A stretch of 64,000 nucleotides of DNA. Origin: a virus. Each line of letters opens with the position of its first letter. Within the stretch, counting starts at the first letter, position 1. The notes under the pieces are model-generated. The model was not told the origin of the DNA and did no database searches. It saw nothing but the letters and a program-made list of their open reading frames with translations. Where the stretch lies: IMG/VR virus record IMGVR_UViG_3300046370_000603. One strand, written 5' to 3'. Shown piece after piece: positions 7,109 through 46,900 of this stretch. The position numbers were made by a program, and so were the translations under genes.

Positions 7109-7206
7109 TTGCTCCTCTCCCTCAAATTTTTAAAAATAATTCTTGACAATATATACAAAACAATTTAAGATATAGATATATTAAACAAAAATAGGAGAAT
7201 AAAATT

Positions 7207-8361
7207 ATGAATCAAGTACCATATCAATTAACAGAAAATTCACTCACAATCTTTTGGGAAGGCAAGCCACACACAATTCGCAAAGATCATGTAAATTTCC
7301 AACTCGCCAAGAAAGCTATTCTTGATGCTAGATATGATGATCTCGGTGATCTTATTGATGTTGCCAAGGCAGTCGAAAATTTTGTTGAAGGTGATATTGA
7401 AGTTAAGGATGAAGTCGTTTATTACAAAGGTCATCGCTTGCATGGTGTTGTTGTTGACAAATTACTTGATATGCTTCGTGCAGGAATGAAAGATTCTGCT
7501 CCTCTTACCAACTTTATCACTCGCTTGCAAGCTAATCCAAGTGCAAATTCAGTAAATGAACTTTATTCTTTTATGAGTTATAAGTCTCTTGCGAATACTC
7601 CCGAAGGTAAGGTTTTGGGGTACAAAGGTGTGCAATCTGATTATTGGAGTACAACAGGTAATGCCGATACAATTGTATTGCAAGGGAAAACTAATGATCG
7701 TCACCAAATTCTCAATGAGGTTGGTGCAACAATTGAAGTTGCTCGTAGATGCGTAGATGACAATAAGGATAATCATTGTTCTTTTGGTCTTCATGTTGGT
7801 TCATTCGATTATGCTGATAGTTGGGCAGGAGAAGATGGAAGATTGCTTCTTGTGGAGTTTGATCCTGCTGATGCAGTATCTGTACCAACTGATTGTGACT
7901 TTCAAAAACTTAGGGTTTCTAAGTACAAGGTGATCTCTGATATTAGCGACACAAGAAAAGAGTTAAATAAACCTGTCTACGAGGCTAATAAGCCCATTTA
8001 TGGATCAGATGATGATGAAGACTGCGATTATGACGATGATGATTCTGATTTTGTTGATGAAGAGATGGCAGATAGAGTTGCCGATCATTATCTTAATAAT
8101 CCTAAAGATTTATTAGCTAATAATCCTCATTTGCTAGATAGTTATGAAGATAGAGTTGATTCAGTTGTGGAGAGCGTTCGCAAGTATGTTACTAATAAAT
8201 TAAATCTAGGAATTTTTCCAACAATTAAAGATATAGCAGATTTAAGAATTTGTAAATCCAATAAAATTGGATATGTTGGAGTAAAAAGTATTGTCGAAGA
8301 GTTAGGTTATGTTCTTGATTTTCTTGACTTGCCTCTTGGTCAACAAATTGTGGTCGAGTGA
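7207..8361 (+). CDS. rIIB: rIIB-like protein
   Basis: Motifs LYSF, GYKGV, CSFGLHVGSFDYA, AVSVPTD...KLRVSKY; paired with rIIA. Confidence 0.85.
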   Translation: MNQVPYQLTENSLTIFWEGKPHTIRKDHVNFQLAKKAILDARYDDLGDLIDVAKAVENFVEGDIEVKDEVVYYKGHRLHGVVVDKLLDMLRAGMKDSAPLTNFITRLQANPSANSVNELYSFMSYKSLANTPEGKVLGYKGVQSDYWSTTGNADTIVLQGKTNDRHQILNEVGATIEVARRCVDDNKDNHCSFGLHVGSFDYADSWAGEDGRLLLVEFDPADAVSVPTDCDFQKLRVSKYKVISDISDTRKELNKPVYEANKPIYGSDDDEDCDYDDDDSDFVDEEMADRVADHYLNNPKDLLANNPHLLDSYEDRVDSVVESVRKYVTNKLNLGIFPTIKDIADLRICKSNKIGYVGVKSIVEELGYVLDFLDLPLGQQIVVE

Positions 8362-10312: not shown

Positions 10313-10733
10313 ATAAAATTGAGAAAGATAAACTCAAATAAATAAAATAATCTAAAATTTTTGTTCTTTATAGTATTGGTAGACCTCTCCGAGCAGTTGG
10401 AAATTGTTGGAGGCTCGGAGGGGTCGCTTAAATTTTGGAAGGGCTTATAATCCTTCCTGTGGGTGACCCGAATAAGCCTGTCGTGAGCGGGCTAAGGTAT
10501 GCAAATTCCCTGTGGTGGGGCGGTAGAGTTCAATCGAATGAGCCGATGACAAATACCATGTCTAATTTGTAGTTGGAAGTAGGTACACCATGAACTGATG
10601 TTCACGCCGAAAACTTGAAGGTATACAGTAATCCTTCCCCACACTCTATTTATCATCCCCCACCCCAACCCTTCTCGGTAACTGCCTAGTAATATCCCAT
10701 TACTAACCGAGAAGGGTTTTTTGTTTTGACAAC
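10313..10733 (+). ncRNA. Putative structured ncRNA, class unknown
   Basis: GC-enriched ORF-free tract between a consensus promoter and an intrinsic terminator, with several helices (see findings). Confidence 0.6.
10667..10731 (+). terminator. Intrinsic terminator-like hairpin
   Basis: AACCCTTCTCGGT...ACCGAGAAGGGTT followed by T-tract. Confidence 0.7.
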
Positions 10734-11100: not shown

Positions 11101-11165
11101 AAATAAATAAAATATAAAGTAAATAAATAAATGATGAAATAAATTTGATTATGATTACCTCCTTG

Positions 11166-11194
11166 ACCCCCACTGTAACAGGTGGGGGTTTTTT
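11166..11194 (+). terminator. Intrinsic terminator
   Basis: ACCCCCAC-loop-GTGGGGGT plus T-tract, just before repeat R1. Confidence 0.8.
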
Positions 11195-11216
11195 GTTGCA
11201 CAATTCTACTGTTTCA

Positions 11217-11288
11217 TAAGTCTTTAATTATCAAGCACTTGCGAGCGCGGCTGCCGTGCTACATAAGTCCTTGATTGACAAGCTTTTA
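11217..11288 (+). repeat. Nested-palindrome repeat R1 (25+22+25)
   Basis: TAAGTCTTTAATTATCAAGCACTTG-CGAGCGC GGCTGCC GTGCTACA-TAAGTCCTTGATTGACAAGCTTTTA. Confidence 0.92.
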
Positions 11289-11314
11289 CAAAAGCATTTT
11301 TATTTACTTTTTAT

Positions 11315-11343
11315 TTGACAGAAACTAAAAATTAGTTTAGTTT
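11315..11343 (+). promoter_or_regulatory. Cassette promoter (leaderless)
   Basis: TTGACA-N17-TAGTTT-N6-ATG 11350. Confidence 0.75.
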
Positions 11344-11349
11344 TATATT

Positions 11350-11538
11350 ATGCAAGAGACAATAGATATTACACCAACATGGTCAGCACTCATTCTTCCG
11401 ATGATTGAGGTGTTGAAGAACCCAAAAGCAGGATACGAAGACAAGCAAAATGTTATATTTGAATTAAAGCGTTTGGCTAAAATCGTTGACGACCAAAACG
11501 CAAAGATCAAAGCAAATGACAAAAACAAAACTAATTAA
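11350..11538 (+). CDS. Hypothetical protein
   Basis: First gene after R1. Confidence 0.7.
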   Translation: MQETIDITPTWSALILPMIEVLKNPKAGYEDKQNVIFELKRLAKIVDDQNAKIKANDKNKTN

Positions 11539-11650
11539 AGAAATTTTAGATCAAATGAATTATCTAAGCCCACGAGAATTGATGAAAATTTTCGAGATGA
11601 TTTATGGTCAAGGAGAAGTTGAACTAAAAGAAGTAGATTGGAGTAAGTAA
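11516..11650 (+). CDS. Small hypothetical protein (44 aa)
   Basis: MTKTKLIKEILDQMNYLSPREL... fills gap; TAATG overlap with next gene. Confidence 0.55.
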   Translation: MTKTKLIKEILDQMNYLSPRELMKIFEMIYGQGEVELKEVDWSK

Positions 11651-11874
11651 TGACATTATCAGAATCAATTATGGACATCGTTAGAGGCAACCTCGCATGG
11701 TCAGACCCCATGTCAACAGTTTGCCTCGATCAACATGAGCGTCACCCCGAAAAGTTTCCAAAGGGTAGCTCGTTTCAAACTGAAGATGAATCTTTAGCAG
11801 ACATCATTCGAGACTTGACATTATTACAAAATGAGCTTAGGATAGAATCATCTTTTCAATCAGCACAACTATAA
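11650..11874 (+). CDS. Hypothetical protein
   Basis: Coupled ORF. Confidence 0.65.
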   Translation: MTLSESIMDIVRGNLAWSDPMSTVCLDQHERHPEKFPKGSSFQTEDESLADIIRDLTLLQNELRIESSFQSAQL

Positions 11875-11888
11875 CACAAGGAAAAATC

Positions 11889-12104
11889 ATGACAACAGTA
11901 TTAGACACACCCGAACAAATCGAAATGTTTCGCTACAAAACTCTTCTTAAAGGGTTAAGGCTCGAGACTTTAGGAATGCAAATGAGCAGGGGCAAATCTT
12001 GCTATTCTATCATCAAACAAGAGTTCGGTCTCAAAGGTAGCAAGCAAAAAGTTTTCGATCAATTCAAATTAATGTTAGAACAAGTAAACGAAAGGGCAGT
12101 ATAA
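11889..12104 (+). CDS. Hypothetical phage protein
   Basis: Coupled ORF; LKGLRLE..GMQMSRG.S.Y. Confidence 0.7.
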   Translation: MTTVLDTPEQIEMFRYKTLLKGLRLETLGMQMSRGKSCYSIIKQEFGLKGSKQKVFDQFKLMLEQVNERAV

Positions 12105-12316
12105 TGACAGCATCACAAGTAGAAGCGAGAGTAGAAAGTTGGAATTGGAATATGAATATCTTTGAGATTTATGATGAACTTAGAGATGGACATTCAGCAA
12201 AAGATCAAGAAAATTTACTTTCTTTTGCCTATCGTTATTTTAACAAAGACAAAATGATTTTAGAGCTTGCCTCTCATTTTGGAATCTATAACATAGAGGA
12301 TGATAACAATGAATAA
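12104..12316 (+). CDS. Hypothetical protein
   Basis: TAATG-coupled ORF. Confidence 0.65.
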   Translation: MTASQVEARVESWNWNMNIFEIYDELRDGHSAKDQENLLSFAYRYFNKDKMILELASHFGIYNIEDDNNE

Positions 12317-12551
12317 TTACATAGAAGCAACCTGCATCGGCAGTCCACTAGGTTTGCCCGAATACAATGAAGATACTGAGCAATGGGAAGTATTTTTTGA
12401 AGAATCAGAAACGCCTTGGTTTCCATACGATATTCCAAGAGACATTCTATCCGTGAGCTTTGAGTCGGCAGATTTGGCTTGCGATGTTTACAATCACTAC
12501 AACCAAAACCCCGTAAAAGAAGAAACTCAAGATGAAGAAATTACTAATTAA
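12309..12551 (+). CDS. Hypothetical acidic protein
   Basis: Overlapping ATG 12309. Confidence 0.65.
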   Translation: MNNYIEATCIGSPLGLPEYNEDTEQWEVFFEESETPWFPYDIPRDILSVSFESADLACDVYNHYNQNPVKEETQDEEITN

Positions 12552-12765
12552 AATTTATCGCTTTTTTAATCCGCTATACCAAGTGGTTTATCAAACCAAA
12601 GATGGTAGAACCGAAATGTACACAATTACAAAACCTATGCACGAAAATGAATTCGGCAACCAACAAGAGGGAAAAGATGTCGTTGGCTTCAGATCTTTTT
12701 GCGTGAATAAAGATGGTATCAGATCTTTTCGTTATGACCACATTGTATCCCTAACCAAAATCTAA
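12532..12765 (+). CDS. Possible WYL-like domain protein
   Basis: Y.TKDG...and C-terminal RSFRYDHIVSL resemble the WYL/Sm-fold signature. Confidence 0.5.
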   Translation: MKKLLIKIYRFFNPLYQVVYQTKDGRTEMYTITKPMHENEFGNQQEGKDVVGFRSFCVNKDGIRSFRYDHIVSLTKI

Positions 12766-12767
12766 TT

Positions 12768-12929
12768 ATGAAGAAAGAAATACAAAATAAAAATACCCTA
12801 CAAGAGAGCTTGAGAAGATTTGGGCATATGCTTGCCATGCGTGAGCAGCGCGGCGATAATTCAACGGAATACAAAAAGAAACAGGCTATGCACGAATCTA
12901 TGCTAAGAAAGCTTTACAACCAATCGTAA
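12768..12929 (+). CDS. Small hypothetical protein (53 aa)
   Basis: MKKEIQNKNTLQESLRRF...; its TAA stop is the first 3 nt of R2. Confidence 0.6.
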   Translation: MKKEIQNKNTLQESLRRFGHMLAMREQRGDNSTEYKKKQAMHESMLRKLYNQS

Positions 12930-12998
12930 GTCATTGATGCTCAGCCACTTAGGTGGCGGGCTGCCGTGCTACATAAGTCCTTGATTGACAAGCGTTTA
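12927..12998 (+). repeat. Nested-palindrome repeat R2
   Basis: TAAGTCATTGATGCTCAGCCACTTA-GGTGGCG GGCTGCC GTGCTACA-TAAGTCCTTGATTGACAAGCGTTTA. Confidence 0.92.
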
Positions 12999-13060
12999 AA
13001 AATTTAAAATTATTTAACTTTTTTCTTGCAGTAATTAAAAAAATTGCTTAGTATGTTTAC

Positions 13061-13474
13061 ATGATACTAAGAAACCAACAAGATCCACGATACACAATCA
13101 AAAAGAATCGTCCCGTATATGTTTACAAGAATCTACATAAAGATTGTTGGAGCATCAAGCAACATGGATTAGTAAAAGCTCACATTCCAAAGGATCATGC
13201 TATTGGATTATGGGATTGCTATTTTCATGTCGATGCCAAAGGCAGAGAAAAAGTTCTTCGTGAGAAGCGTAAGAATGTTCATGCTTTTGTCAAGGGCTAC
13301 CTTCAAGATGCTGAGAATGTATCTCGCAATCCCCAAGTTGTCACCAGGAAAGTCGAGGTAACATATAATCCTTACAAGTATGAGACTTTTGTCGAGAAGG
13401 ATACCGAAAAGTTTGCGTACTATGCAGACGAAGTTTTATTAACACACAACAAAGTAACCGCTTATATGTCATGA
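13061..13474 (+). CDS. Conserved-looking phage hypothetical protein
   Basis: YKNLHKDCWS...GREKVLREKRKNVHAFV motif; TTGCAG-N17-TAGTAT-N6-ATG. Confidence 0.75.
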   Translation: MILRNQQDPRYTIKKNRPVYVYKNLHKDCWSIKQHGLVKAHIPKDHAIGLWDCYFHVDAKGREKVLREKRKNVHAFVKGYLQDAENVSRNPQVVTRKVEVTYNPYKYETFVEKDTEKFAYYADEVLLTHNKVTAYMS

Positions 13475-13626
13475 ATATTACAACAGCATTAGAAATTGTA
13501 TTAGACCTAGCCAATCAAAATGTTATTGACGATCCTGAAATGAAAGAGGAGGCATCAAAACAAAATGAAGCTATTGAATGGGTTGCATATTATTTAGAAA
13601 ATTTTATAAAGAAAGGTAAACATTAA
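13471..13626 (+). CDS. Small hypothetical protein (51 aa)
   Basis: ATGA-coupled, MNITTALEIVLDLANQN... Confidence 0.6.
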   Translation: MNITTALEIVLDLANQNVIDDPEMKEEASKQNEAIEWVAYYLENFIKKGKH

Positions 13627-13627
13627 A

Positions 13628-13831
13628 ATGAAAGAAGAATTATACTCAATTAAAACCGCCATTGACGGACTCAGCGATGAGATACTAGAACATCGCAGAC
13701 ACGCAAACATGGACGACCTCGTCAAGGTAATGAAGAATATCAACGACAATCTTGTTGCAATTAGTTTCGACTTAAAAGATCTAGTTGAAGCAAAAAAGTT
13801 TCAAAATGAGTTGACAACCGCACTCAGATAG
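13628..13831 (+). CDS. Hypothetical coiled-coil protein
   Basis: Stop lies 1 nt before R3. Confidence 0.65.
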   Translation: MKEELYSIKTAIDGLSDEILEHRRHANMDDLVKVMKNINDNLVAISFDLKDLVEAKKFQNELTTALR

Positions 13832-13832
13832 G

Positions 13833-13904
13833 TAAATCCTTTATAGTCAGTCACTTAGGTGACGGGCTGCCGCGCGATCTAAGTGCTTGATATTCAACGA
13901 TTTA
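13833..13904 (+). repeat. Nested-palindrome repeat R3
   Basis: TAAATCCTTTATAGTCAGTCACTTA-GGTGACG GGCTGCC GCGCGATC-TAAGTGCTTGATATTCAACGATTTA. Confidence 0.9.
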
Positions 13905-13967
13905 AAAAAATCAAAATTACTTAACTTTTTTCTTGCTATAATTAGGTATTTAGCCTACTATGTATAT

Positions 13968-14084
13968 ATGAAAGCGAGAGAGATAAAGATCAGAAAACCA
14001 ATTCTTTTTACTAAGTCCCGCCCGCACAAAGTTAAAAACAAGACAATCCACAGAAAACTCAAACATAAGGAATTATTAGCATGA
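13968..14084 (+). CDS. Small basic protein (38 aa)
   Basis: Start moved to ATG 13968 (TTGCTA-N17-TACTAT-N6-ATG); K/R/H-rich. Confidence 0.6.
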   Translation: MKAREIKIRKPILFTKSRPHKVKNKTIHRKLKHKELLA

Positions 14085-14308
14085 ATATCAGCGAAGACTA
14101 TTTAGACAATGAAAACCCAAATGCAGACGAAGTAATGACTCGAGCCATGAGTTGGCTTTGGAAACACTTCATTGAACCTAACACAGATCACATTACAGAA
14201 GAACAAGCTGAAATGCTTACAATGATTGGCGTTAGCTTTAAAATGATTGCAGAACAAGCTGATGCTTACGATCAAACTTTTGAAGAAAGTCCATATTTAA
14301 ACAATTAA
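14081..14308 (+). CDS. Hypothetical protein
   Basis: ATGA-coupled. Confidence 0.65.
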   Translation: MNISEDYLDNENPNADEVMTRAMSWLWKHFIEPNTDHITEEQAEMLTMIGVSFKMIAEQADAYDQTFEESPYLNN

Positions 14309-14346
14309 CTCTTGACAAAAAACATTATAACTATTATTATACTATC

Positions 14347-15219
14347 ATGAATACAGAAGAAAACAACATTAACGCTCCTCGCAAATCCGTAAACTTACAC
14401 ATTTGTGGAGGTAATCGTACTTTAGTAGATTTTGATCAAGTGCAAGCAGTACCAACTCCTTTGGCAACCATGCGTAGCAAACCAAACAAAAGAACAGGTG
14501 AGCTTGCTGTTTCTCATCAGCCAATCGCTCATGATGAGCTTATCGTTCGCACTAGAGAATCTTTAACTCAAAAAGGTTTTGCTATTCAAGATGAAGTTCA
14601 CTCTCTCGCTAGAGGCGATCAGCACTATTTCGGTTTATTTGCCGTAGATCATCCTAATCGAGTTGCAACTGATCGTGGTTGCGTTGTGGGCGTTCGTAAC
14701 TCTCACGACAAAACATTCCCCGCAGGACTTTGTGCAGGTGATGCTCCATTCGTTTGCGATAATTTAATTTTTACCAATACCATTAAACTTGCTCGCAGAC
14801 ATACTCGCAACATTCTCAACGATCTTGACTTTATGATCAATCGTGCTTTGGGTAAGTTGTTCGGATTTTGGCATGGACAAGATCAAAGAATTGAAGCCTA
14901 CAAAGATCGTTCTATCGGCAATGTTCTTGCTCACGATCTAATCATCAAAGCGGTTCGTGCAGGTGCTTTACCAAAATCTAAAATTCTTGATGTTGCAGAT
15001 CAATGGGAATCAAGCGATCATGTTGAATTTAAGGATCGCAATGTCAATTCTCTTTATAATGCTTTCACCGAAATTTACAAAGGCAACTTAGTTGCCTTGC
15101 CAAATCGCTCGGATGCTCTTCATTCTGTTCTTGACAACTATGTTGATTTTAATATCGACAACCATGTTGAAAATACTCTTGATATGGAAGTTGTTGAAGG
15201 CGAATTGGTTGAAGTTTAA
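14347..15219 (+). CDS. DUF932/DUF945-family protein
   Basis: RNSHDKT..AG...G...FVCDNL.F and RRHT motifs, LYNAFTE near C-terminus. Confidence 0.75.
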   Translation: MNTEENNINAPRKSVNLHICGGNRTLVDFDQVQAVPTPLATMRSKPNKRTGELAVSHQPIAHDELIVRTRESLTQKGFAIQDEVHSLARGDQHYFGLFAVDHPNRVATDRGCVVGVRNSHDKTFPAGLCAGDAPFVCDNLIFTNTIKLARRHTRNILNDLDFMINRALGKLFGFWHGQDQRIEAYKDRSIGNVLAHDLIIKAVRAGALPKSKILDVADQWESSDHVEFKDRNVNSLYNAFTEIYKGNLVALPNRSDALHSVLDNYVDFNIDNHVENTLDMEVVEGELVEV

Positions 15220-15242
15220 AAATTGGTTTGTCGTTTCGTTTT

Positions 15243-15270
15243 GCTCCCCCGATTGGGGGAGCTTTTTTTT
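15243..15270 (+). terminator. Intrinsic terminator
   Basis: GCTCCCCC-GATT-GGGGGAGC plus T8, just before R4. Confidence 0.85.
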
Positions 15271-15289
15271 GGAATGATTTAGGCTTTTG

Positions 15290-15361
15290 TAAGTCTTTGG
15301 TTATCAAGCACTTAGGGGCGCGGCTGCCGCGCGCCATAAGTCGCTGATGTTCAACGATTTA
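15290..15361 (+). repeat. Nested-palindrome repeat R4
   Basis: TAAGTCTTTGGTTATCAAGCACTTA-GGGGCGC GGCTGCC GCGCGCCA-TAAGTCGCTGATGTTCAACGATTTA. Confidence 0.92.
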
Positions 15362-15423
15362 AGAATGTCATTTTAGTTCATTTTTTTCTTGCGTTAAATT
15401 GTTTTTTTTGCGATAGTGTAACC

Positions 15424-15630
15424 ATGAAAAGAATAGTAAAAATCTTAATGGAGCGTGACGGGCTTTCCCGCGAAGACGCTATTCACCAAACCGCAACTTT
15501 TTTCCGTGAAATGTCTGAAGACATTGCAATGGGTGGTGATCCATTCGAATGGGAAGAAACATTTACCAGTGAGTTTTCTCTAGAACCAGATTTTTTTGAA
15601 GATCTTATTTTTTCGCTTGCAATTGCATAA
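15424..15630 (+). CDS. Hypothetical phage protein
   Basis: ILMERDGLS.EDA...FSLEPDF; TTGCGT-N17-GATAGT-N6-ATG. Confidence 0.7.
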   Translation: MKRIVKILMERDGLSREDAIHQTATFFREMSEDIAMGGDPFEWEETFTSEFSLEPDFFEDLIFSLAIA

Positions 15631-15651
15631 AAATTTGGTTAGTTTTATATT

Positions 15652-16377
15652 ATGAATCTATTATCAAACCCATCTAAAATGCCTTGCTTAGGCTTTAACA
15701 TTCCCGCTTTCAAGTATTGCCCTGCAGCTCAACTCATGGCAAAGGTCAAGGACAAAGCAAAAAAGTTTATTTGTGATGCTTGTTATGCTTGCAAAGGTTT
15801 TTATATGTTTAACAATGTCAAACAAAGTTTGCAAGACAAGGCAAATTTTGTCACCAAGTCTTTACATCGAGACAATGGGCAAACTTTTGTAAATGAGATA
15901 TCCAAGCAAATCAAGGCAAAGTATTTTGACAAGCAAGGCAACAAAAAAGTTTTAAAGAATGTCAACACAGATCTTTTTCGTGTTCATGATTCAGGAGATC
16001 TTTTTTCCCCAAAGTATATCGAGGCATGGATTAAGATTTGCGAAAATTTTCCTTCAATTCGCTTTTGGTTTCCAACTCGTGAGTGGGCAAGAGATAGTCA
16101 ATTGCCTTCACTTCGCAAGCTCGCAAGTTTAAAGAATGTTTGCTTAAAACCAAGTGCTTTATATGTTGATGAACCCGCTCCACAAATCGATGGTCTAGAT
16201 GCGGGAACTTCCGTCTATAGCTCAAAAGAGAAAGCTGAGCAAGACGGGCATTTTGTTTGTCCCGCAACTTATGTTAAGGGCGAAGACGGCAAGGTTCTTG
16301 CAACTTGTAAAGCTCATAATTGCAACTTATGTTTTATCAAAGGATGCAAAAAAGGTATTGCATATTTAGCTCATTAA
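15652..16377 (+). CDS. GP88-family (radical-SAM-like) protein
   Basis: SKMPC..FNIPA..YCP...CDACYACKG.Y and FRVHDSGD motifs; C-terminal C..CNLC. Confidence 0.7.
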   Translation: MNLLSNPSKMPCLGFNIPAFKYCPAAQLMAKVKDKAKKFICDACYACKGFYMFNNVKQSLQDKANFVTKSLHRDNGQTFVNEISKQIKAKYFDKQGNKKVLKNVNTDLFRVHDSGDLFSPKYIEAWIKICENFPSIRFWFPTREWARDSQLPSLRKLASLKNVCLKPSALYVDEPAPQIDGLDAGTSVYSSKEKAEQDGHFVCPATYVKGEDGKVLATCKAHNCNLCFIKGCKKGIAYLAH

Positions 16378-16392
16378 TCTATAATTAAAGCC

Positions 16393-16572
16393 ATGAATGA
16401 AGAAACTTATTTTGACTCAGCCCAAGGAATTGACATTTCACAAGATCGTGCCTTAGAAGAATTAGCCAGGCACGGCATTACTTCCAGTGAGGAAATTATT
16501 GAATTTTTTGAAGACATGGGCGACAAGGAAGGGTATTCAGCCCAAAAAGTTCTTGAGTGGTTAGGCTACTAA
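16393..16572 (+). CDS. Small hypothetical protein (59 aa)
   Basis: MNEETYFDSAQG...VLEWLGY; TAA stop is first 3 nt of R5. Confidence 0.65.
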   Translation: MNEETYFDSAQGIDISQDRALEELARHGITSSEEIIEFFEDMGDKEGYSAQKVLEWLGY

Positions 16573-16641
16573 AGCCTTGACTATCAAGCACTTAGGGGCG
16601 CGGCAGCCGCGCAAGCTAACTGCCTGTTAGCCAACGACTTA
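16570..16641 (+). repeat. Nested-palindrome repeat R5
   Basis: TAAAGCCTTGACTATCAAGCACTTA-GGGGCGC GGCAGCC GCGCAAGC-TAACTGCCTGTTAGCCAACGACTTA. Confidence 0.9.
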
Positions 16642-16703
16642 CACAAGCATTTTTATTTAACTTTTTTCTTGCGTTAATTGTAGAAAGAGTTTAATGTGTT
16701 TAT

Positions 16704-17099
16704 ATGATTAACTACGACATACCAAACTCAATCTCACAATTCAACCCAAAACCTTCTATGTTAGATTTTGACGATCTAGATTTTCAACCACATCGTGGTG
16801 CTGATGATGCAGTCCAAGCAAGACTTGACTTTGGCAACGGGCTAGAAATTTCTGTTGTTGCAAGTAAAGATGGCAGAGCAGGATTATATGGTAGTGTGGA
16901 GGAAGATTTGTACGAAGTTGCAGTTTTTTACAACAATGAAATGATTCCGCTTTCTCGTTCTGACGATGTTGTTGGCTGGCAATCTCCTGCTCAAGTATCT
17001 ATCCTAATGGCGAAAGCTCAATCCGAAGGAAGCGTTTGGGTTGATGAGCTAATTGCAGACAAAGCAGAATTTAGAAGAGATTTAGGGCTTGACGACTAA
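16704..17099 (+). CDS. Conserved-looking phage hypothetical protein
   Basis: FDDLDFQPH...FGNGLEISVV...YG...LYEVAV...DDVVGW. Confidence 0.7.
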   Translation: MINYDIPNSISQFNPKPSMLDFDDLDFQPHRGADDAVQARLDFGNGLEISVVASKDGRAGLYGSVEEDLYEVAVFYNNEMIPLSRSDDVVGWQSPAQVSILMAKAQSEGSVWVDELIADKAEFRRDLGLDD

Positions 17100-17123
17100 A
17101 CCAAACTAAACTATATTATTACT

Positions 17124-17387
17124 ATGACAGAAGAACAAAGACTCGCAGTTATCGCTAACGCATATCGTGAATCCAAAGGTTTGCCAACTAATTCCTCAGT
17201 ATTAGAATTAGTCGCAGACTTACAAGCAGAACAATTGGTTGTCGAGCATGGATTGAAAGATGTTGAAAGAGATGACATTACAGATGAAACTCAGTTCTTA
17301 CTTACTGATGTCGCTGAAGATATTGATGAGGAAGATGAAGAAATCGGATTATCCGATGAAATGAAAGGAATATATTATGATAGTTGA
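17124..17387 (+). CDS. Hypothetical acidic protein
   Basis: TTGACG-N17-TATATT-N6-ATG. Confidence 0.7.
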   Translation: MTEEQRLAVIANAYRESKGLPTNSSVLELVADLQAEQLVVEHGLKDVERDDITDETQFLLTDVAEDIDEEDEEIGLSDEMKGIYYDS

Positions 17388-17454
17388 ATTGTTTTTATTA
17401 TCGCCTTGGCTTCTTGTTTTTTATATTATGTGGAAAGATATGATAGAAGAATGA
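17377..17454 (+). CDS. Putative 25-aa hydrophobic peptide
   Basis: MIVELFLLSPWLLVFYIMWKDMIEE, overlaps previous stop. Confidence 0.4.
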   Translation: MIVELFLLSPWLLVFYIMWKDMIEE

Positions 17455-17507
17455 TGCCAATTTTAATTATATTATCGATTCTACTTTATCTTTATATCCA
17501 AGACTAA
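17451..17507 (+). CDS. Putative 18-aa hydrophobic peptide
   Basis: MMPILIILSILLYLYIQD, ATGA-coupled. Confidence 0.35.
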   Translation: MMPILIILSILLYLYIQD

Positions 17508-17573
17508 ATTTCTCAAATAGCAAATAACTTTTTTTAGTAGTATTAGTTGAAGTTGTTGGATTAGCCCTCGTCC

Positions 17574-17645
17574 TAAGTGATTGATAATCAAGCACTTAGG
17601 GCGGGCGGCTGCCAAATTCATAAGTCCTTGATTATTAAGGATTTA
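17574..17645 (+). repeat. Nested-palindrome repeat R6
   Basis: TAAGTGATTGATAATCAAGCACTTA-GGGCGGGC GGCTGCC AAATTCA-TAAGTCCTTGATTATTAAGGATTTA. Confidence 0.92.
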
Positions 17646-17697
17646 TTTTTTTTATTTTTTTCTTGCAAGTTTTATTTTTTTATAGTAGTTTACTTTT

Positions 17698-17892
17698 ATG
17701 GATAATCAACAAGACTCTCTCGAAAACATTGCTCACGCCTACGGCATCACTGATGCTGATCTTGATGAACGCGAATCTGTGCTTGCTCAAATAGCACAGG
17801 AAGAACTTGAAGAGTATGACCGCCAAGCTCTCAAAAAATTCTCTGAAAACGAGGATTTTGACTGGGGTTATCACGCCCAATGGGATTTCTAA
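17698..17892 (+). CDS. Hypothetical acidic protein (single-gene cassette)
   Basis: TTGCAA-N17-TAGTTT-N6-ATG; TAA stop is first 3 nt of R7. Confidence 0.7.
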   Translation: MDNQQDSLENIAHAYGITDADLDERESVLAQIAQEELEEYDRQALKKFSENEDFDWGYHAQWDF

Positions 17893-17961
17893 CTCGTTGG
17901 TAGTCAGTCACTTAGGTGACGGGCTGCCGACAAGCTTAAGTCTTTGATTATCAAGCTTTTG
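17890..17961 (+). repeat. Nested-palindrome repeat R7
   Basis: TAACTCGTTGGTAGTCAGTCACTTA-GGTGACG GGCTGCC GACAAGCT-TAAGTCTTTGATTATCAAGCTTTTG. Confidence 0.9.
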
Positions 17962-18023
17962 CAAAAGCATTTTTATTTACTTTTTTTCTTGCGTATTTTA
18001 AAATTTTGTTCTAGTGTGTATAC

Positions 18024-18230
18024 ATGAAACATTCAGAAAGTGGAACTCGCAAAGTGTTAAAACAATTACGGAAATGTCCTGAAATCGAAAAGATTCGTGA
18101 GACTGCAAGTGGGCATATGATCCTTGCTAGAAATGGAGAGCAGTATCTCGCCCATTTTAGTGCAAGAGCATTTCACCCATTGCGTAGATGGTTAAAAAGA
18201 AACACTTCATTAAAAACATTAAAATTCTAA
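18024..18230 (+). CDS. Small basic protein, possibly HicA-like fold
   Basis: 68 aa, helix followed by RETASGHMIL (G-H motif); weak similarity by eye. Confidence 0.5.
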   Translation: MKHSESGTRKVLKQLRKCPEIEKIRETASGHMILARNGEQYLAHFSARAFHPLRRWLKRNTSLKTLKF

Positions 18231-18234
18231 AATT

Positions 18235-18456
18235 ATGGATACTTACAACGGCTGGAAAAACTGGGCGACCTGGAATGTTGCTCTTTGGTTAGGGAATGAC
18301 GAATATCTTTACAAACTTTCTCGTAGGTTTGTTAATTACAAAGATCTTGCAAATACGCTCATAGAAATGGGTAGTCCTTGTACGCCTGACGGGGCAAGGT
18401 ATGCAGATGAAGACTTAGACACCTACGCCCTCGATGAATTGTTGCAAGAAGAGTAA
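18235..18456 (+). CDS. Conserved-looking phage hypothetical protein
   Basis: YNGWKNWATWNVALWLGNDE motif; TAA stop is first 3 nt of R8. Confidence 0.75.
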   Translation: MDTYNGWKNWATWNVALWLGNDEYLYKLSRRFVNYKDLANTLIEMGSPCTPDGARYADEDLDTYALDELLQEE

Positions 18457-18524
18457 GTCGTTGATTATCAAGCACTTAGGTGCTTGGCAGCCGCACCCAT
18501 AAGGGCTTGGCTATCAGTGACTTA
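18454..18524. repeat. Nested-palindrome repeat R8 (21-bp spacer; at convergence point)
   Basis: TAAGTCGTTGATTATCAAGCACTTA-GGTGCTT GGCAGCC GCACCCA-TAAGGGCTTGGCTATCAGTGACTTA. Confidence 0.92.
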
Positions 18525-18526
18525 TG

Positions 18527-18754
18527 TCAGCAATCTTTTTGTGATTCCCATTTTAGTTTCCAATCCCTGCAACGGCAGGAAGTTTTTAGTGCGGGTGTTG
18601 AAAGTTTTGCAATTTGTTGCCCGACATCAAATCGTGCTTGCCAAGCTTTGCCGTAAGCAACCGATTGATCTTGCAAACTCTTTGAATTATCCCAAAGATT
18701 ATAGCAACGGGCATTTAAGTCATTCCATTTTTGATTTAATTCTTGCAATGTCAT
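18527..18754 (-). CDS. Hypothetical protein
   Basis: Last gene of minus-strand block, stop 2 nt from R8. Confidence 0.6.
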   Translation of the reverse strand: MTLQELNQKWNDLNARCYNLWDNSKSLQDQSVAYGKAWQARFDVGQQIAKLSTPALKTSCRCRDWKLKWESQKDC

Positions 18755-18767
18755 AATTATTTTCCCC

Positions 18768-19022
18768 TTATAGTTTTTCGGTTAACATTTCTTCCCTTAC
18801 CGCATTGTTTGCAATGTTGTTAATTTCGGTCATCCATTTATCAACATTTTCATTGAACACTTTTCCATCGCCTGAAATGTTTTCTGCAACTGTGTTTTTA
18901 ATAGCTCTTGCTTGAGCCGCAATGCCTAAGAGTGCTCTTGACAAGTTGTAAGCTTGGTGATTTTTATATGAATCGTTTTCTATTAAGTCAACGATTGAGA
19001 TGGTGTCCGTATTAGCTTTCAT
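18768..19022 (-). CDS. Hypothetical protein
   Basis: TCGCAA-N17-TACCTT-N6-ATG on minus strand. Confidence 0.65.
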   Translation of the reverse strand: MKANTDTISIVDLIENDSYKNHQAYNLSRALLGIAAQARAIKNTVAENISGDGKVFNENVDKWMTEINNIANNAVREEMLTEKL

Positions 19023-19060
19023 ATATATAAGGTAAACGATTTATTAAGTAATTGCGAATT

Positions 19061-19294
19061 TTATTTTAGTAAATTTAAAAGATCATTTACGCATGGTTCA
19101 GTGATGTGTCCATCTACTTTCATTGCGTCGATGATTTCTTTATTTGTTACATCTTTAGATGCTTCGACTATTTGATCCCAAGTCCAAACATTATTTGCGA
19201 CATCTTCCCACAGGGAAACGCCCGACTTTTCGTCGCGTGAAAACTCAAGAAGCCCATTGACTCCGATTACATGATTGATTCTGATCTTATCCAT
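19061..19294 (-). CDS. Hypothetical protein
   Basis: Start moved to ATG 19294 (MDKIRINHV...): TTGCAA-N17-TACCTT-N6-ATG. Confidence 0.65.
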   Translation of the reverse strand: MDKIRINHVIGVNGLLEFSRDEKSGVSLWEDVANNVWTWDQIVEASKDVTNKEIIDAMKVDGHITEPCVNDLLNLLK

Positions 19295-19477
19295 AAAAAC
19301 AAGGTAAACTAGTGGTGCGTGTTTTGCAAGCAAATACAGATTTTTTTTTGTCTTTTTATTTAAATACCAAATAGTCAAATAGTGCAACTTTTTAGGAGTG
19401 GCGGGATTGTGCAACTTTATAGTTGTAGTAGTATTGGGCAACTTTATAGTTGGCACACTTCCTGAACTCCTCTTTTG

Positions 19478-19548
19478 TAAGTCGTTGTTTATTAAGCACT
19501 TACAGCAGCGGCAGCCGCCTCCCTAAGTGCTTGATTATCAGTGACTTA
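19478..19548 (-). repeat. Nested-palindrome repeat R9 (21-bp spacer)
   Basis: Plus strand TAAGTCGTTGTTTATTAAGCACTTA-CAGCAGC GGCAGCC GCCTCCC-TAAGTGCTTGATTATCAGTGACTTA. Confidence 0.92.
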
Positions 19549-19559
19549 GGAGGCTGATC

Positions 19560-19733
19560 TTATCGGTGTGCTAGACCTTCCAATCGTGCTATTTGATTGT
19601 CCAATTCTATTTGTATGGCTTCAATGTCTGAAGCCTTCTTTTTATTGTTTAATTTCATCGCCTTGACTCTTTCGTTATTCAACGCCATGATTTGAGTTCT
19701 TAATTTGTTTATTGTGTTTTTTATGTATTCCAT
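19560..19733 (-). CDS. Small coiled-coil protein (57 aa)
   Basis: MEYIKNTINKLRTQIMALNNERV...LAHR read by hand. Confidence 0.6.
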   Translation of the reverse strand: MEYIKNTINKLRTQIMALNNERVKAMKLNNKKKASDIEAIQIELDNQIARLEGLAHR

Positions 19734-19735
19734 GA

Positions 19736-20071
19736 TTAGATTAAATCGTAGTATTGTGGCGAGTAGTCAACATGGCAAGAGTGGGATTCTATCTCTTCAT
19801 CCATGTTGTCGTTAAGTTCTTTTTTAATTGCTTTGACAAGATCCAAATTGATTGAATCAATCTCTTTGCCGTTACCATCAAAACGCTTTACGCTTTCAAG
19901 AGTATCAAAGTAAGCTACCAAGTGAACGGCTGAGACTTGGTCTCCATAAAGAGACTCCTCTGTATCTGTCGATGCTCTACCTTGCAGTTCGTAGTATTCT
20001 TCGCCCACTTCAGCATAGGCGGAAAACTCTTCTTCGGTTACTTCGTCGAATTCTATTTTTATTTCTGTCAT
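19736..20071 (-). CDS. Hypothetical acidic protein
   Basis: TTGACA-N17-GATAGT-N5-ATG on minus strand. Confidence 0.7.
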   Translation of the reverse strand: MTEIKIEFDEVTEEEFSAYAEVGEEYYELQGRASTDTEESLYGDQVSAVHLVAYFDTLESVKRFDGNGKEIDSINLDLVKAIKKELNDNMDEEIESHSCHVDYSPQYYDLI

Positions 20072-20117
20072 ACCTTACTATCGTCTATTTTTTAACTTTT
20101 GTCAAATTTATTTTGAA

Positions 20118-20468
20118 TTATTTTTGAAACATTATTTCAAGGCAAGTGTCGAATTGTTCACGAAAGAGTCTTGGTGCATCTGTGACAAACCAAGTTTTGC
20201 TAGTGTTTGTGATTAACCTTTCTGTGATCTTTTTGCTTACGACATCTAAAAGATCTGTATTCTCGTAAATGTTGGATTCTGTCAATTCGTTTGTTTGTTC
20301 GTTTACTAGCTTTGCCATGTAGACATCTATATATTCGGGTTTATATGAATCATTTATCAAGATGTCATCTTGACAAGCTACTGCCTCAACCCTGTAAGTT
20401 GTGCCGCTTATTCCCATCAGGAAGTTAAAAGTGAATTCTTCTGTGTCTGTATTGTATATTGATTTCAT
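20118..20468 (-). CDS. Hypothetical protein
   Basis: TTGACT-N17-TAGTTT-N6-ATG 20468. Confidence 0.7.
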   Translation of the reverse strand: MKSIYNTDTEEFTFNFLMGISGTTYRVEAVACQDDILINDSYKPEYIDVYMAKLVNEQTNELTESNIYENTDLLDVVSKKITERLITNTSKTWFVTDAPRLFREQFDTCLEIMFQK

Positions 20469-20584
20469 ATACATAAACTAAGGCATATATTAACTAAAGT
20501 CAAATTTATTTTGAATTATTTGGCAACTATTTTATTGCATTATTCTATCACATGAATTGGCATGGTTTCTGTACATGCGTCTCG

Positions 20585-20655
20585 TAAGTCGTTGTTTATT
20601 AAGCACTTACGAGGGCGGCAGCCGCCGCCCTAAGTGCCTGATTATCAGTGACTTA
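20585..20655 (-). repeat. Nested-palindrome repeat R10 (21-bp spacer)
   Basis: Plus strand TAAGTCGTTGTTTATTAAGCACTTA-CGAGGGC GGCAGCC GCCGCCC-TAAGTGCCTGATTATCAGTGACTTA. Confidence 0.92.
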
Positions 20656-20669: not shown

Positions 20670-20720
20670 TTATAGTGTATAGATGTATAGTGCAACCGAT
20701 AAGAGGATTATGCAAGTCAT
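20670..20720 (-). CDS. Putative 16-aa hydrophobic peptide
   Basis: MTCIILLSVALYIYTL, ATGA-coupled to upstream gene. Confidence 0.35.
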   Translation of the reverse strand: MTCIILLSVALYIYTL

Positions 20721-21013
20721 ACATACACCTCCTCTGTATGTGTTACCCAATCGTATTCGTCAATTTCTTGCCCGTTTAGCATAGGGGTAAAGTTCTTTTG
20801 ATAAATGCCTAATCCTGTTATGCCGTTGACTCTTTCCCTTGTTGTTGGAGTGTTCCAACCTGCAAGCGTTGCCATTACAAGCCCGCTTACATCTCGTTTG
20901 ATTATCTCGTTGCCATGTAAGAAGACGCTTGTGCCGTCTGTTCTTGTGTTGCCAACCTTTAGAGAAGTGCCTTGCTCAAAGGCTTTTTTAATTCTTTCTG
21001 TTACTTTACGCAT
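20717..21013 (-). CDS. Conserved-looking phage hypothetical protein
   Basis: MRK....GNT....VFLHGNEI...GWNTPTTRERVN motif. Confidence 0.75.
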   Translation of the reverse strand: MRKVTERIKKAFEQGTSLKVGNTRTDGTSVFLHGNEIIKRDVSGLVMATLAGWNTPTTRERVNGITGLGIYQKNFTPMLNGQEIDEYDWVTHTEEVYV

Positions 21014-43962: not shown

Positions 43963-46900
43963 ATGAGTGTTGTAAACATACCTACAGCTGCTACAGGTTA
44001 TAGGCAGAGTATTATTAGAGACGCGCAAGGAGCTCAGCGCGTAGTTAATCGTATGCAAATGTCTCCAACCCTAAACCCATCTGGAATCATTCAGCCTTTG
44101 GGTAGAATAACTAATTCAGCAAGCGAATTTCAAAAATCAATGGATGCATCTGCAGCCCGTGTTTTTGCTTTTGGCGCCGCAGTGGGTGTTATTAATGGGG
44201 TTAGTGAAGCTTTTAGGGCGATGATAGCAGCTACAGCAGAAGTTGAAAAATCTCTGAAAGATATTCAGGTTGTAATGGAAGCTTCAAACAGTGCTATGCA
44301 AAAATTTGGAGATGGATTATTTGATGTAGCCAGAAATACTGCCACGTCTTTCAAGGATGTAGCTGAGTCAGCCACGGAACTGGCTAGGCAAGGTTTAAGT
44401 GCAGAAGAAACGTTAGCCAGGGTAAATTCAGCCTTAATACTTAGCAGGCTTTCTGGCCTAGATGCTGTCAAATCTACAGAGACTTTAACAGCGGCAATCA
44501 ACTCTTTTAATAAAGAGGGTATAACTCATTCAGAAATTGTAAATAGAATGGCTAATGTTGACGCTGCATTTGCGGTATCTTCAGCTGATTTAGCAGAAGC
44601 GATCTCAAGAGCTGGAGCTGTTGCGCAATCTTCTGGAGTTTCTTTTAATCAGTTAGCAGCTGTAGTTACTGCAGTGCAGCAAAGAACTGCCAGAGGCGGA
44701 TCTGTAATAGGTAATGGATTTAAGAGTATTTTTACTAGAATAAAAAGGAGTGGTGTTCGAGAGGCTTTAGAGGAAATAGGAGTTGCTACTAAAAACAACG
44801 ACGGAAGCTTTAGGGACTCAATGTCTGTTATTTTGGATTATGCAGATGTATATAAAAATTTGAGCGATAGCCAAAAAGCTTACACAGCGGAACAATTAGC
44901 TGGAGTTTATCAAATACAAAATTTACAAGCATTAATCCAAGATCTGAATAGTGGATATTCAATATATAATAAAGCTTTAGGAGTCGCTAATAATACAACA
45001 AACGAAGCAATTCAAAGAAATAAAGACTTAAATACAACTCTATCCGCAATGTTTACGCAAACTCAACTAAGCGCTAAAGAATTAGCTTCCTCTTTAGGTG
45101 AATTGGCGCTATCAGGAAACTTTAAAGAAATATTAACTTTTTTAAATAACTTAGCTCAAAAACTGAATGATCTTTTATCTGAGGATGGAGGCAATAATTT
45201 AGCTAAAAATTTAGTGCGAGGCATTGGTAGTTTTTTAACTGGCCCTGGGATGGTAATACTTGGAGCAGCTTTCCTTAAGATTTTTGGATTAGTTACGAAA
45301 TTTGCTAAAGAAGCTTTTTCCGACATCTTAGGTTTAAATAAAGAATCTAAAAGGCAGCAAAGCCTACAAGCTGCAATAGGGCAAGTATTGAGCACCAACT
45401 CTGGAATTTACCAAAAAATATTGGCTGCTGGAAGTAATACCGCAAAACAAGAGCAGATAATACTGAATTTAATAAGGCAAGAAACAGCTGAAAGAATCAA
45501 GCAAGAAGCTCTGATAAAAAGAATTGCAGCTAGTTCGCGATTGGTTGGTATAGGTGCGTCAGAATCTGGATTTGTACCAATGGGCAAAAAAACAGCTCAA
45601 GCAAGAGGCCGAAAAGTTTTAGGCATGTCAAATGGGTTTTTACCCGCTTTTAACAGAGAGCAAAGAGATATAAATACTGGAGTAGGCGGAGCAAGAAAAT
45701 CAGATAAACCTGTCTTACTTAAAAACCATAAAATGGGCGGCGGTAAAGTTAATGATGTTGTAGCTCATACTGGTGAATGGACTGTTAGGAATTTTAAAGG
45801 CTCGGGGGGTACAGCTATTTTTAATAGAGACATGGCATCAGCTTATGGACTGCCTTCTGGTGCAAAAAAAATTAATGCATCTAGCGGATTTATCCCGAAT
45901 TTTGCAAAATTTACCAACGAAAGCCATACAATGACATCCGCCCAACTAGGAGGGTCTCAATCTGGCAAGGGGCCAATATCTAGACTTTCAGATGTGATTG
46001 ATAGTTTCACTGGAAAAATAAAAGTCGCTAAAATGGATTTTACCAATAAAGACTTAGGTAAAAATGCAACAGATATTGTCAGAGGAAATAAGGCGCAAAA
46101 CATACCTGGATTGATAGAGTCCGACCCAAAAGCTTTAAGAGCTGGGAGAACTAAATATAGAGTTAATAAAAAAGCAGTTGGAATGCTTAATAAAAGATAC
46201 GGGAATTTAGTAAAAGATGGTCCTTATGCTGGTATAGTTACAACGGCGAAAAGCATTAGCGAGAGCAAATATAACAATTATAAAACATCACAAGGTCAGC
46301 CTGATCAAATAAAAGATTATTTTAAAAGTGTTACTGGACTTCTAAAGGGTGTTGAAGGAGAGCATCAAAGTATTAAATATTTAGCTAATAGCGGTTTGAA
46401 AAATGTTAAACCTATACAAGGGGCAGGAAGTTTTGATTTATCCGCAAAAAACTCAAAGGGCAAAAAAGCAAAAATGTTTGAAGTTAAGGCTAAAGAAAAA
46501 CAAAACGTGGTGGTTGGACTAAAAAAAGCTGCAGATCAATATTTAAAATTAAAAGCAATTACTCAAAAAAACTCAGGGCAAGACCCGATTGGCATCAAAA
46601 ACGGAAGACCAGATAAAATAAATTTAACTTCAGGCAACGCATTGTTTGCTGGGGGCATTAATATGTTAACAGCTGCAGATACAAAACTTTCAGCTAATAA
46701 AATCAGTCCTCTTTCAGAAGAAAATAAAAAATTCAAACAAGAAGAGGTTTTCAAACAAATAAAAAGTTTTACAAATTTAGATTTTAAAGACAGGCAAGCT
46801 TTATATAAAGATAAAACTAATGAAGAAATTTGGTCAAAAGCCAGAAAAGCTCTAGAAGATAAACCCAAAGATCAATTAAATTTTTACCTCAGAAGTTTGC

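Follow-up and report, generated by a model that had tools for sequence, protein, structure and literature searches.

An uncultured phage of about 206 kb carries, between its early genes, ten repeats of 71–72 bp. We interpret these repeats as architectural boundary and promoter modules of an IHF/HU type that double as dispersed homology for the shuffling of gene cassettes, in the manner of the promoter-early stem-loop (PeSL) cassettes of T4-type phages (Arbiol et al. 2010, PMC2839356; Comeau et al. 2014, PMC4122927). Protein binding is predicted here, and we place the chances of this composite reading somewhat above even. The elements are not an integron, and their shuffling is more likely to proceed by ordinary homology-driven recombination than through an integron-like enzyme.

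When a profile made from the ten copies is run over the window (the whole 64-kb stretch analysed, to which all coordinates refer), it picks out the ten elements that a preliminary description had recognised and no others. Each consists of a 25-bp arm, a GC-rich spacer of 21–22 bp, and a second 25-bp arm. The arm consensus is YAANNNNYTGATNATCARNNNNTTR; with up to three mismatches allowed, it is matched by 14 arms, every one of them part of one of the ten elements, whereas shuffles lead one to expect 0.01 matches. The arms had been called exactly 25-bp palindromes; the length is right, but the palindromes are imperfect, since the two NN dinucleotides mostly lack self-complementarity. Columns A2, A3, T9, C22, T23, and T24 and their equivalents in arm 2 never vary, whereas column 1 is T or C and column 25 is A or G. 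The spacer contains GGCWGCC in all ten window copies.

Seven elements are oriented on the plus strand: R1 (11217–11288; profile score 65 bits), which lies ahead of cassette B1, R2 (12927–12998), R3 (13833–13904), R4 (15290–15361), R5 (16570–16641), R6 (17574–17645), and R7 (17890–17961). R8 (18454–18524) sits between the convergent 3' ends of ORFs 18235–18456 (plus) and 18527–18754 (minus), whereas R9 (19478–19548) and R10 (20585–20655) are oriented on the minus strand and flanked by minus-strand genes; a TGnTAGAAT-type −10 box follows R10 about 38 nt downstream on that strand. The blocks between elements measure 244–1638 bp, as first reported, and other early observations also hold. The TAA stops of the ORFs ending at 12929 (12768–12929), 16572 (16393–16572), 17892 (17698–17892), and 18456 supply the arm's first three nucleotides at R2, R5, R7, and R8, respectively. 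The core reads GGCTGCC in the direction of the genes except at R5, where it reads GGCAGCC; the change is confined to the central base (T to A), and R5 is otherwise of the usual polarity.

Within each arm, the IHF consensus WATCARNNNNTTR occurs twice, in inverted orientation, such that the two WATCAR-N4-TTR halves share the central base and the ApA/TpT steps (T8-T9 and A17-A18) are 9 bp apart. In known IHF sites, WATCAA lies near the site centre with TTR 4 bp beyond, and prolines intercalate at AA steps 9 bp apart (PMC1874591). Pooling 196 half-sites gives frequencies of W.90, A.66, T.78, C.83, A.99, and R.99, followed by two unspecified positions, A, C, T 1.0, T 1.0, and R.99. Of these half-sites, 76 match WATCARNNNNTTR perfectly and 77 with one mismatch (153/196 with at most one), and 18 of the 32 perfect matches in the window fall within the 717 bp occupied by the elements. 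The invariant arm columns are the specified IHF positions, and the two arm sites of an element are 47–49 bp apart. The arms share WATCAR, TTR, and AA kinks 9 bp apart with Escherichia coli IHF sites (WATCAANNNNTTR; the lambda H' site; PMC1874591), but in those natural sites only one half follows the consensus and the other carries an A-tract, an asymmetry that the arms, with two consensus halves, do not have. Symmetry of this kind could accommodate a homodimer, or a protein that docks either way round.

No HU/IHF gene scored above the Pfam cut-off in the phage, which makes the host the most likely source of the binding protein. Weighing against the IHF-type reading, a manA RNA motif, a match to Kyano_Gp96, and a nearest TerL from a Microcystis phage hint at a possibly non-proteobacterial host that has HU only, and HU usually binds DNA without sequence specificity.

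The arms could instead be operators of a phage-encoded dimeric regulator unrelated to HU/IHF, acting in early shut-off or as an activator, with the likeness to IHF sites being coincidence or mimicry. The sites are indeed palindromic, paired, and upstream of all early promoters, and, over a large phage clade, the arms are retained even as the spacers vary. Positions beyond the E. coli IHF consensus are conserved too (the AC before TT and the S-S dinucleotide), and most ORFs of the region belong to no known family. We nevertheless regard such a regulator as unlikely: the arms agree with IHF sites at all nine specified positions, down to the Y/R ambiguities and the 9-bp distance between kinks, and no helix-turn-helix (HTH) or other DNA-binding family was detected among the 74 window ORFs. 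The preliminary description had listed, among the outcomes that would refute it, arms that are only repressor operators or transcription terminators; the match of the arms to a protein-site consensus comes close to such an outcome.

Two canonical intrinsic terminators lie on the plus strand, separate from the elements: one at 11165–11196 (10-bp stem and T run), 27 nt upstream of R1, and one at 15243–15270 (8-bp GC stem and T8), 28 nt upstream of R4. A terminator scan places terminators beside elements and never inside them, and no U tract follows the element hairpin. This bears on the possibility that the element acts as a folded nucleic acid, be it an RNA terminator, an RNase III or mRNA-stabilising hairpin, or a DNA cruciform extruded by supercoiling. 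Every 72-mer can form a long hairpin (−18 to −35 kcal/mol), and the elements are located at gene 3' ends. RNAalifold, however, yields no consensus structure for the elements, and for pairing within arms or between them, both paired cells and covariation are at or below shuffled values. As the arms lack compensatory changes, they are kept as sequence—that is, as a protein site—and not as stems. Hairpin potential in the spacer is barely above that of shuffles (mean z −0.6), being strong in some copies only (in the window, strongest in R4) and absent in many. One small hairpin, H1 (NNCAC-TTAG-GTGNN, formed by the end of arm 1 and the left spacer), does covary in about half of the copies, with the observed score reached by 2 of 500 shuffles, so the spacer may be under some selection for structure. 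A folded element as the general explanation is, in our estimation, very unlikely.

The arms, then, probably serve as protein sites in double-stranded DNA, and their placement relative to promoters is consistent with that role. Each of R1–R7 is followed by its own promoter of the type TTGNNN-17-TAGTAT and then by the first ATG of the cassette, 6 nt past the end of the −10 box; promoters of this type also follow the elements of relatives. The seven in the window all lie on the plus strand and comprise an A/T-rich tract (T-rich at R6), a −35 box, 17 nt, and a −10 box: R1, 11289–11352 (TTGACA 11315–11320, TAGTTT 11338–11343, ATG 11350); R2, 12999–13063 (TTGCAG 13026–13031, TAGTAT 13049–13054, ATG 13061); R3, 13905–13970 (TTGCTA 13933–13938, TACTAT 13956–13961, ATG 13968); R4, 15362–15426 (TTGCGT 15389–15394, GATAGT 15412–15417, ATG 15424); R5, 16642–16706 (TTGCGT 16669–16674, TAATGT 16692–16697, ATG 16704); R6, 17646–17700 (TTGCAA 17663–17668, TAGTTT 17686–17691, ATG 17698); and R7, 17962–18026 (TTGCGT 17989–17994, TAGTGT 18012–18017, ATG 18024). 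A promoter had been assigned to every block; this stands for the blocks of R1–R7 and fails at R8, which lies between convergent genes without an adjoining promoter. Because of R8, promoter activation cannot be the sole role of the elements.

Among R1–R7, the offset from element to −35 box is 26–28 bp, except at R6, where the promoter is 10 bp nearer (17 bp), one helical turn away from the others. Across the family, the offset from arm 2 is 6 bp in 8 copies, 16–18 bp in 7, and 26–29 bp in 28 (43/52 copies), and never 19–25 bp. This clustering (6, 16–17, and 26–28 bp) is helical phasing. In a non-redundant set, 22 of 30 copies fall into the three classes as against 25% for shuffled flanks, a statistic that overstates independence because the 26–28 bp class is largely one homologous module.

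The elements occur in dozens of IMG/VR contigs, in a single region of about 10 kb per genome. The clade that carries them consists of abundant, uncultured, aquatic phages of about 200 kb with more than 2000 TerL relatives, in which the elements are a conserved, clade-wide cis module. In 84 more diverged copies, both arm consensus sequences are kept around a spacer of 21–24 bp with 81% GC. The GGCWGCC core, described as invariant, is so in the window but is present in only 39 of 49 near copies and 6 of 84 distant ones. A search of 185,579 species genomes returned chance partial matches only. That the elements are selfish MITEs with TAAGT...ACTTA ends, spread within the phage genome, is thus highly improbable. 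They have the terminal inverted repeats, small size, and many copies of a MITE, and Correia-type MITEs also carry IHF sites and promoters (PMC3184786), but their restriction to one 10-kb region, constant polarity to genes, and phased promoter distance speak against mobility, and no transposase was found.

What does move are the cassettes. Relatives have the orders 1-2-3-4-5, 3-2-1-4-5, 2-1-3, and 1-3-4-2-5, each arrangement being found in at least two separate assemblies, and three independent arrangements supply ten order-changing junctions, every one of them inside an element. Some relatives have cassette B6 and others lack it, the empty site then being a hybrid R6/R7 element. The proposed gain, loss, and reordering of early-gene cassettes at these sites is thereby borne out. 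R1 is itself a mosaic: the left half most resembles R4, the right half shares 97% identity with R2, and the flank downstream is nearest to R7. Inferred break points, with a resolution limited by divergence, are scattered over columns 1–74 and beyond them in the promoter flank and are not fixed at GGCWGCC.

A site-specific system—a phage ‘integron’ in which an unrecognised recombinase exchanges strands in the spacer and IHF boxes are accessory, as in lambda attP—would account for permutations that map to elements, for the reassortment of left and right element halves, and for the average drop in identity to the upstream partner past the core. IHF is, moreover, a classical recombination cofactor, and no RecA/UvsX, RecT, or ERF genes were found in the 205.9-kb relative, a result that also counts against the explanation we prefer. 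We still consider such a system improbable. The preliminary description had found no recombinase in the window, as is the case among its 74 ORFs, and had advised looking beyond it; no tyrosine recombinase (PF00589), serine recombinase, or Y1/HUH enzyme is found in five related records, including a full genome of 205,857 bp. With exchange points scattered, the core unconserved in distant relatives, the arms free of covariation, and cassettes equipped with their own promoters, the integron-like, site-specific, or cruciform mechanism first suggested is not upheld. Similarly low is the probability we give to a variant in which paired IHF-type boxes would be assembly platforms for a dedicated, unrecognised phage activity that excises and reinserts promoter-bearing early cassettes, with host IHF/HU as architectural cofactor; if true, it would be a lytic-phage counterpart of the integron.

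Under the explanation that we prefer, the element would be a double-stranded protein-docking module at the boundary of an early transcription unit. Each arm would be a symmetric site for a DNA-bending protein of the HU/IHF family; the GC-rich spacer, presumably stiff, would keep the two sites apart, and the promoter-proximal site would lie on a fixed helix face relative to the A/T-rich tract and the sigma70-type promoter. We infer that the bound protein bends the DNA upstream of each promoter, which could strengthen early transcription, insulate the unit from its neighbour (from read-through, supercoil diffusion, or silencing of AT-rich DNA), or both. With some ten copies of a module of about 135 bp (element plus promoter) in a single 10-kb region, the repeats also offer dispersed homology. 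By general recombination or gene conversion from one copy to another, whole self-expressing cassettes could be excised, reinserted, deleted, or permuted with genes left unbroken. The identity of the binding protein, the effect on transcription, and the recombination pathway are the three parts that we infer.

The element links the docking of nucleoid proteins, the architecture of early promoters, and the modular way in which accessory genes evolve, which are usually studied apart. If IHF/HU binding is true, every early transcription unit of a lytic phage would be a point at which a DNA-bending protein of the host is recruited, and cassettes of small unknown genes would have a concrete substrate for exchange. 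In metagenomic phage genomes, the motif is also a practical marker of where early regions and cassette boundaries lie, and it may hint at the host.

Three known systems invite comparison. Integron attC sites are likewise imperfect palindromes that bound gene cassettes and sometimes contain a stop codon, but the elements here come without IntI, attI/Pc, attC-type conservation of structure, or a fixed crossover point, and integron cassettes are promoterless and expressed from a common Pc, whereas seven of the ten elements here are followed by promoters. BIME-1/RIB (RIP) repeats bind IHF and lie at the 3' ends of enterobacterial transcription units (Boccard and Prentki 1993, via PMC3333891; PMC3184786), and REP/BIME sequences have been proposed as topological insulators (PMC3333891, PMC3184786). 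They, too, are extragenic, occur repeatedly, and join IHF sites to GC-rich palindromic DNA, yet the order is REP-IHF-REP in E. coli and IHF-GC-IHF here, so that two REPs around an IHF site are not what is seen, and the present elements are phage-borne, clustered, and tied to promoters. The PeSL cassettes, rightly named as a precedent in the preliminary description, are alike in being repeated composite modules that hold a sigma70-type early promoter, in being concentrated in a hyperplastic region of small ORFs, in marking the places where relatives differ by indels, replacements, and reordering, and in crossing over at various points of homology. Mini-circles arising from recombination between modules are a further trait of PeSL cassettes. 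They differ in having a GGGG...CCCC terminator stem-loop where the present elements have two symmetric 25-bp IHF-consensus boxes around a GC-rich spacer that forms a strong hairpin in some copies, and in including a Shine-Dalgarno leader, for which the first ATG, 6 nt past the −10 box, leaves no place in the module here; they also belong to T4-type phages, whereas the present phage, with its 3533-aa tape measure and unrelated TerL, is not T4-like.

The ten elements that the preliminary description had placed at 11217, 12927, 13833, 15290, 16570, 17574, 17890, 18454, 19478 and 20585 (R1 to R10) are all present, and a profile built from these copies finds those ten only in the 64 kb. Their anatomy also holds, with two 25-bp arms around a spacer of 21–22 bp that carries GGCWGCC in the ten window copies, and stop codons within the arm at R2, R5, R7 and R8 are borne out. 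Searching the window with the arm consensus matched 14 arms where 0.01 was expected; in five related records, too, the arms are confined to one stretch of ~10 kb per record, and it is barely credible that the elements are MITEs. When 185,579 species genomes were scanned once, 13 of them showed a single partial match each, consistent with chance, among them a 205-kb ‘Rickettsiales’ contig without a match to the window. No elements lie within 10 kb of TerL in relatives with 71% identity, where gene order differs. In a distant relative, one interval (L058:9205–9330) has three successive arms (arm, spacer, arm, spacer, but no fourth arm), which represents a partial duplication of an element.

The window comes from a tailed phage whose DNA is AT-rich (~33% GC), and carries rIIA/rIIB at 4811–8361, PhoH at 21681 and TerL at 27257. 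The protein encoded at 43963–54564 on the plus strand is a tape-measure protein (PF10145, PhageMin_Tail domain at residues 123–314), which rules out a virion RNA polymerase acting at hairpin promoters of the N4 type; the tape measure's 3533 aa are far above the usual length. Megablast found no close cultured relatives among GenBank phages, TerL has only ~25% identity to Bacillus, Clostridium and Microcystis phages, and the cyanophage marker psbA is absent. The uncultured clade is large (>2000 TerL relatives, contigs of at most 208 kb), and related IMG/VR records stood in for the rest of the genome of the window phage. One relative, G001 (205,857 bp), shares matches with a second contig that keep a constant offset and wrap round the ends of that contig; the genome is therefore ~206 kb in length, and its assemblies are circular permutations.

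The window and eight related contigs supplied 49 distinct copies of the element, which we aligned in gene direction. Columns A2, A3, T9, C22, T23 and T24 and their arm-2 counterparts are invariant in this alignment, and four columns alternate between two bases (T/C at 1 and 8, A/G at 18 and 25), so that each arm reads YAANNNNYTGATNATCARNNNNTTR, i.e. the IHF consensus WATCARNNNNTTR twice, in opposite orientations, with the central base common to both. Among 196 pooled half-sites, the successive positions of WATCAR occur at frequencies of.90/.66/.78/.83/.99/.99 and those of TTR at 1.0/1.0/.99; 76 half-sites match the IHF consensus perfectly and 77 have one mismatch. The elements' 717 bp contain 18 of the 32 perfect matches in the window. 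Additionally, the T8-T9 and A17-A18 steps of the arm are 9 bp apart, as are the two kinks that proline intercalation makes in IHF complexes (PMC1874591). Because the search for a phage HU/IHF gene gave no match above the Pfam cut-off, the binder of the arms is probably a host protein; that the arms serve a phage regulator unrelated to IHF is unlikely.

A second scan of viral contigs with the profile yielded 84 more distinct copies, from more diverged phages, which have the same consensus in both arms and a spacer of 21–24 bp (81% GC). GGCWGCC, earlier taken for an invariant core, does not extend to the family as a whole: it is kept in only 6/84 of these copies, other lineages having runs such as GGGCC-TCCCCC, which indicates that the ‘core’ characterises a lineage and is not where the function is centred.

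We consider it very improbable that the element acts as folded RNA or DNA. RNAalifold gave no consensus fold, and for compensated pairing, whether in a hairpin within the arm or in a long hairpin between arm 1 and arm 2, covariation scores are at or below shuffled values, as is the fraction of paired cells (72–75%). The arms are therefore palindromic through a consensus in sequence, with no part played by compensated pairing, and RNA structure was rejected as an explanation. The central hairpin is weak (72/500 shuffles reach the observed score), and hairpin potential in the spacer (mean z -0.6) is barely above shuffles and missing in many copies; a small hairpin, NNCAC-TTAG-GTGNN, covaries in about half of the copies.

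Downstream (3′) of R1–R7, which precede the seven plus-strand cassettes, an A/T-rich tract is followed by a predicted promoter of the TTGNNN-17-TAGTAT type, the -35 box starting 26–28 bp past arm 2 (17 bp at R6). The conserved module served to define these promoters, in place of a generic sigma70 scan, which was uninformative (46 sites vs 34 expected). In all seven cases, the first ATG of the cassette (11350, 13061, 13968, 15424, 16704, 17698 and 18024, plus strand) lies exactly 6 nt past the predicted -10 box, without a Shine-Dalgarno sequence, and leaderless transcripts are therefore predicted for these first genes. There may be a connection with a promoter-like motif, GTG(T/G)A, that occurs elsewhere in the genome. 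Of 52 distinct copies with a recognisable promoter, 43 have -35 offsets of 6, 16–18 or 26–29 bp, with 19–25 empty; for the non-redundant set, 22/30 fall in these classes, compared with 25% for shuffled flanks. This clustering is a periodicity of one helical turn and puts the proximal IHF-type box near -54, -64 or -75, with the caveat that a single homologous module makes up most of the 26–28 class. Strong canonical intrinsic terminators occur on the plus strand 27 nt upstream of R1 (11165–11196) and 28 nt upstream of R4 (15243–15270), and at no other cassette end; R8, flanked by convergent genes, has no promoter. With terminators separate and R8 promoterless, the element marks transcription-unit boundaries in general. 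At minus-strand elements, a conserved motif, roughly TGTWCAGRAANYRTGCCAAYT (20525–20584 and 19418–19477, minus strand; also in related contigs L004, L005, L007, L047 and L093), replaces the A/T tract and TTGC promoter downstream, followed at R10 by a -10 box of the TGnTAGAAT type, and may represent a second promoter class.

The proposal that gene order and content would differ between relatives at the elements is supported: in BLAST alignments to the window, related contigs have the same cassettes in different orders. The cassette order is 1-2-3-4-5-6-7 in the window, 3-2-1-4-5-7 in contigs of samples 3300048556 and 3300046168, 2-1-3-4... in a contig of sample 3300024264, and 1-3-4-2-5-7 in contigs of samples 3300046746, 3300046751 and 3300046170. 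All ten order-changing junctions lie inside an element, where overlapping alignments meet. Each order was seen in at least two independent assemblies, and assembly chimeras are unlikely because copies within one genome are only 60–90% alike. Cassette 6 (one 64-aa ORF) is missing in several relatives, the empty site being a hybrid element (R6 left, R7 right); gene content also varies within cassettes, away from the elements. In two related contigs (L010:154–1134 and L004:4586–5890), the homologue of a cassette-7 gene (18024–18230) is joined to that of a cassette-5 gene (17124–17387).

Within the elements, exchange has no fixed position. Pairs with only the upstream cassette in common have a mean identity above background at columns 1–33 and at background after the core, and the best change-points, pair by pair, fall at columns 1, 6, 11, 14–15, 21, 27–30, 35, 41–44 and 74. 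The nearest kin of R1 within the window is R4 for the left half (84%), R2 for the right half (97%) and R7 for the downstream flank (87%). Scattered change-points and this mixed kinship indicate that exchange is spread over the element and promoter flank, the pattern to be expected if recombination is driven by homology or if gene conversion is at work; crossovers in PeSL mini-circles, as sequenced, are likewise spread over homology (PMC2839356). Tyrosine recombinases, serine recombinases and Y1 transposases went undetected in five related records, one of them the full genome, in searches in which control genomes scored, and the 74 window ORFs showed none either. The site-specific, integron-like exchange first proposed is not supported, given this result and the scattered change-points, and we regard it as improbable that the elements are true site-specific recombination sites, their hosting of every order-changing junction notwithstanding. 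RecA, RecT and ERF were not found in the phage either, and the recombination machinery may come from the host or may have diverged beyond recognition.

Several other features lie near or within the cassettes. A manA RNA motif (10437–10647, plus strand; Rfam RF01745, 79 bits vs a gathering score of 55) is located ~570 nt upstream of R1; identity to relatives reaches 97% over the motif stretch, compared with ~80% in the flanks of those relatives. Phage_L5_gp82 (13061–13474, Pfam E 3.5e-31), GP88 (15652–16377, E 7.9e-25) and, on the minus strand, Kyano_Gp96 (20717–21013, E 1.7e-07) are cassette genes whose families are known from phages but have no known function. Cassette 4 opens with a gene (15424–15630, plus strand) that encodes an acidic, conserved 68-aa protein with a predicted four-helix fold (pLDDT 88) and orthologues in six related contigs (L011, L015, L016, L010, L094 and L004). 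In the model, helices 1–2 are similar to the N-terminal helices through which HU/IHF dimerises; Foldseek superposes 34–37 residues on HU/IHF-alpha at 0.9–1.2 Å, which is not significant, nor are the PDB profile matches (HU E 0.065, IHF-alpha E 0.23), and PF00216 reaches 16.8 bits, below threshold, for one orthologue only. The protein is without DNA-binding beta arms, and its possible interaction with host HU/IHF is a weak lead.

On balance, we lean towards reading the elements as architectural modules of the IHF/HU type, each combining boundary and promoter, which would secondarily carry portable homology through which cassettes shuffle in the manner of PeSLs. Two known systems come closest. 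The PeSL cassettes of T4-type phages have the same evolutionary role and promoter content and match the scatter of exchange points seen here, but differ in the non-promoter part. The IHF-binding BIME-1/RIB repeats of enterobacteria, in turn, have the same ingredients in inverted order.
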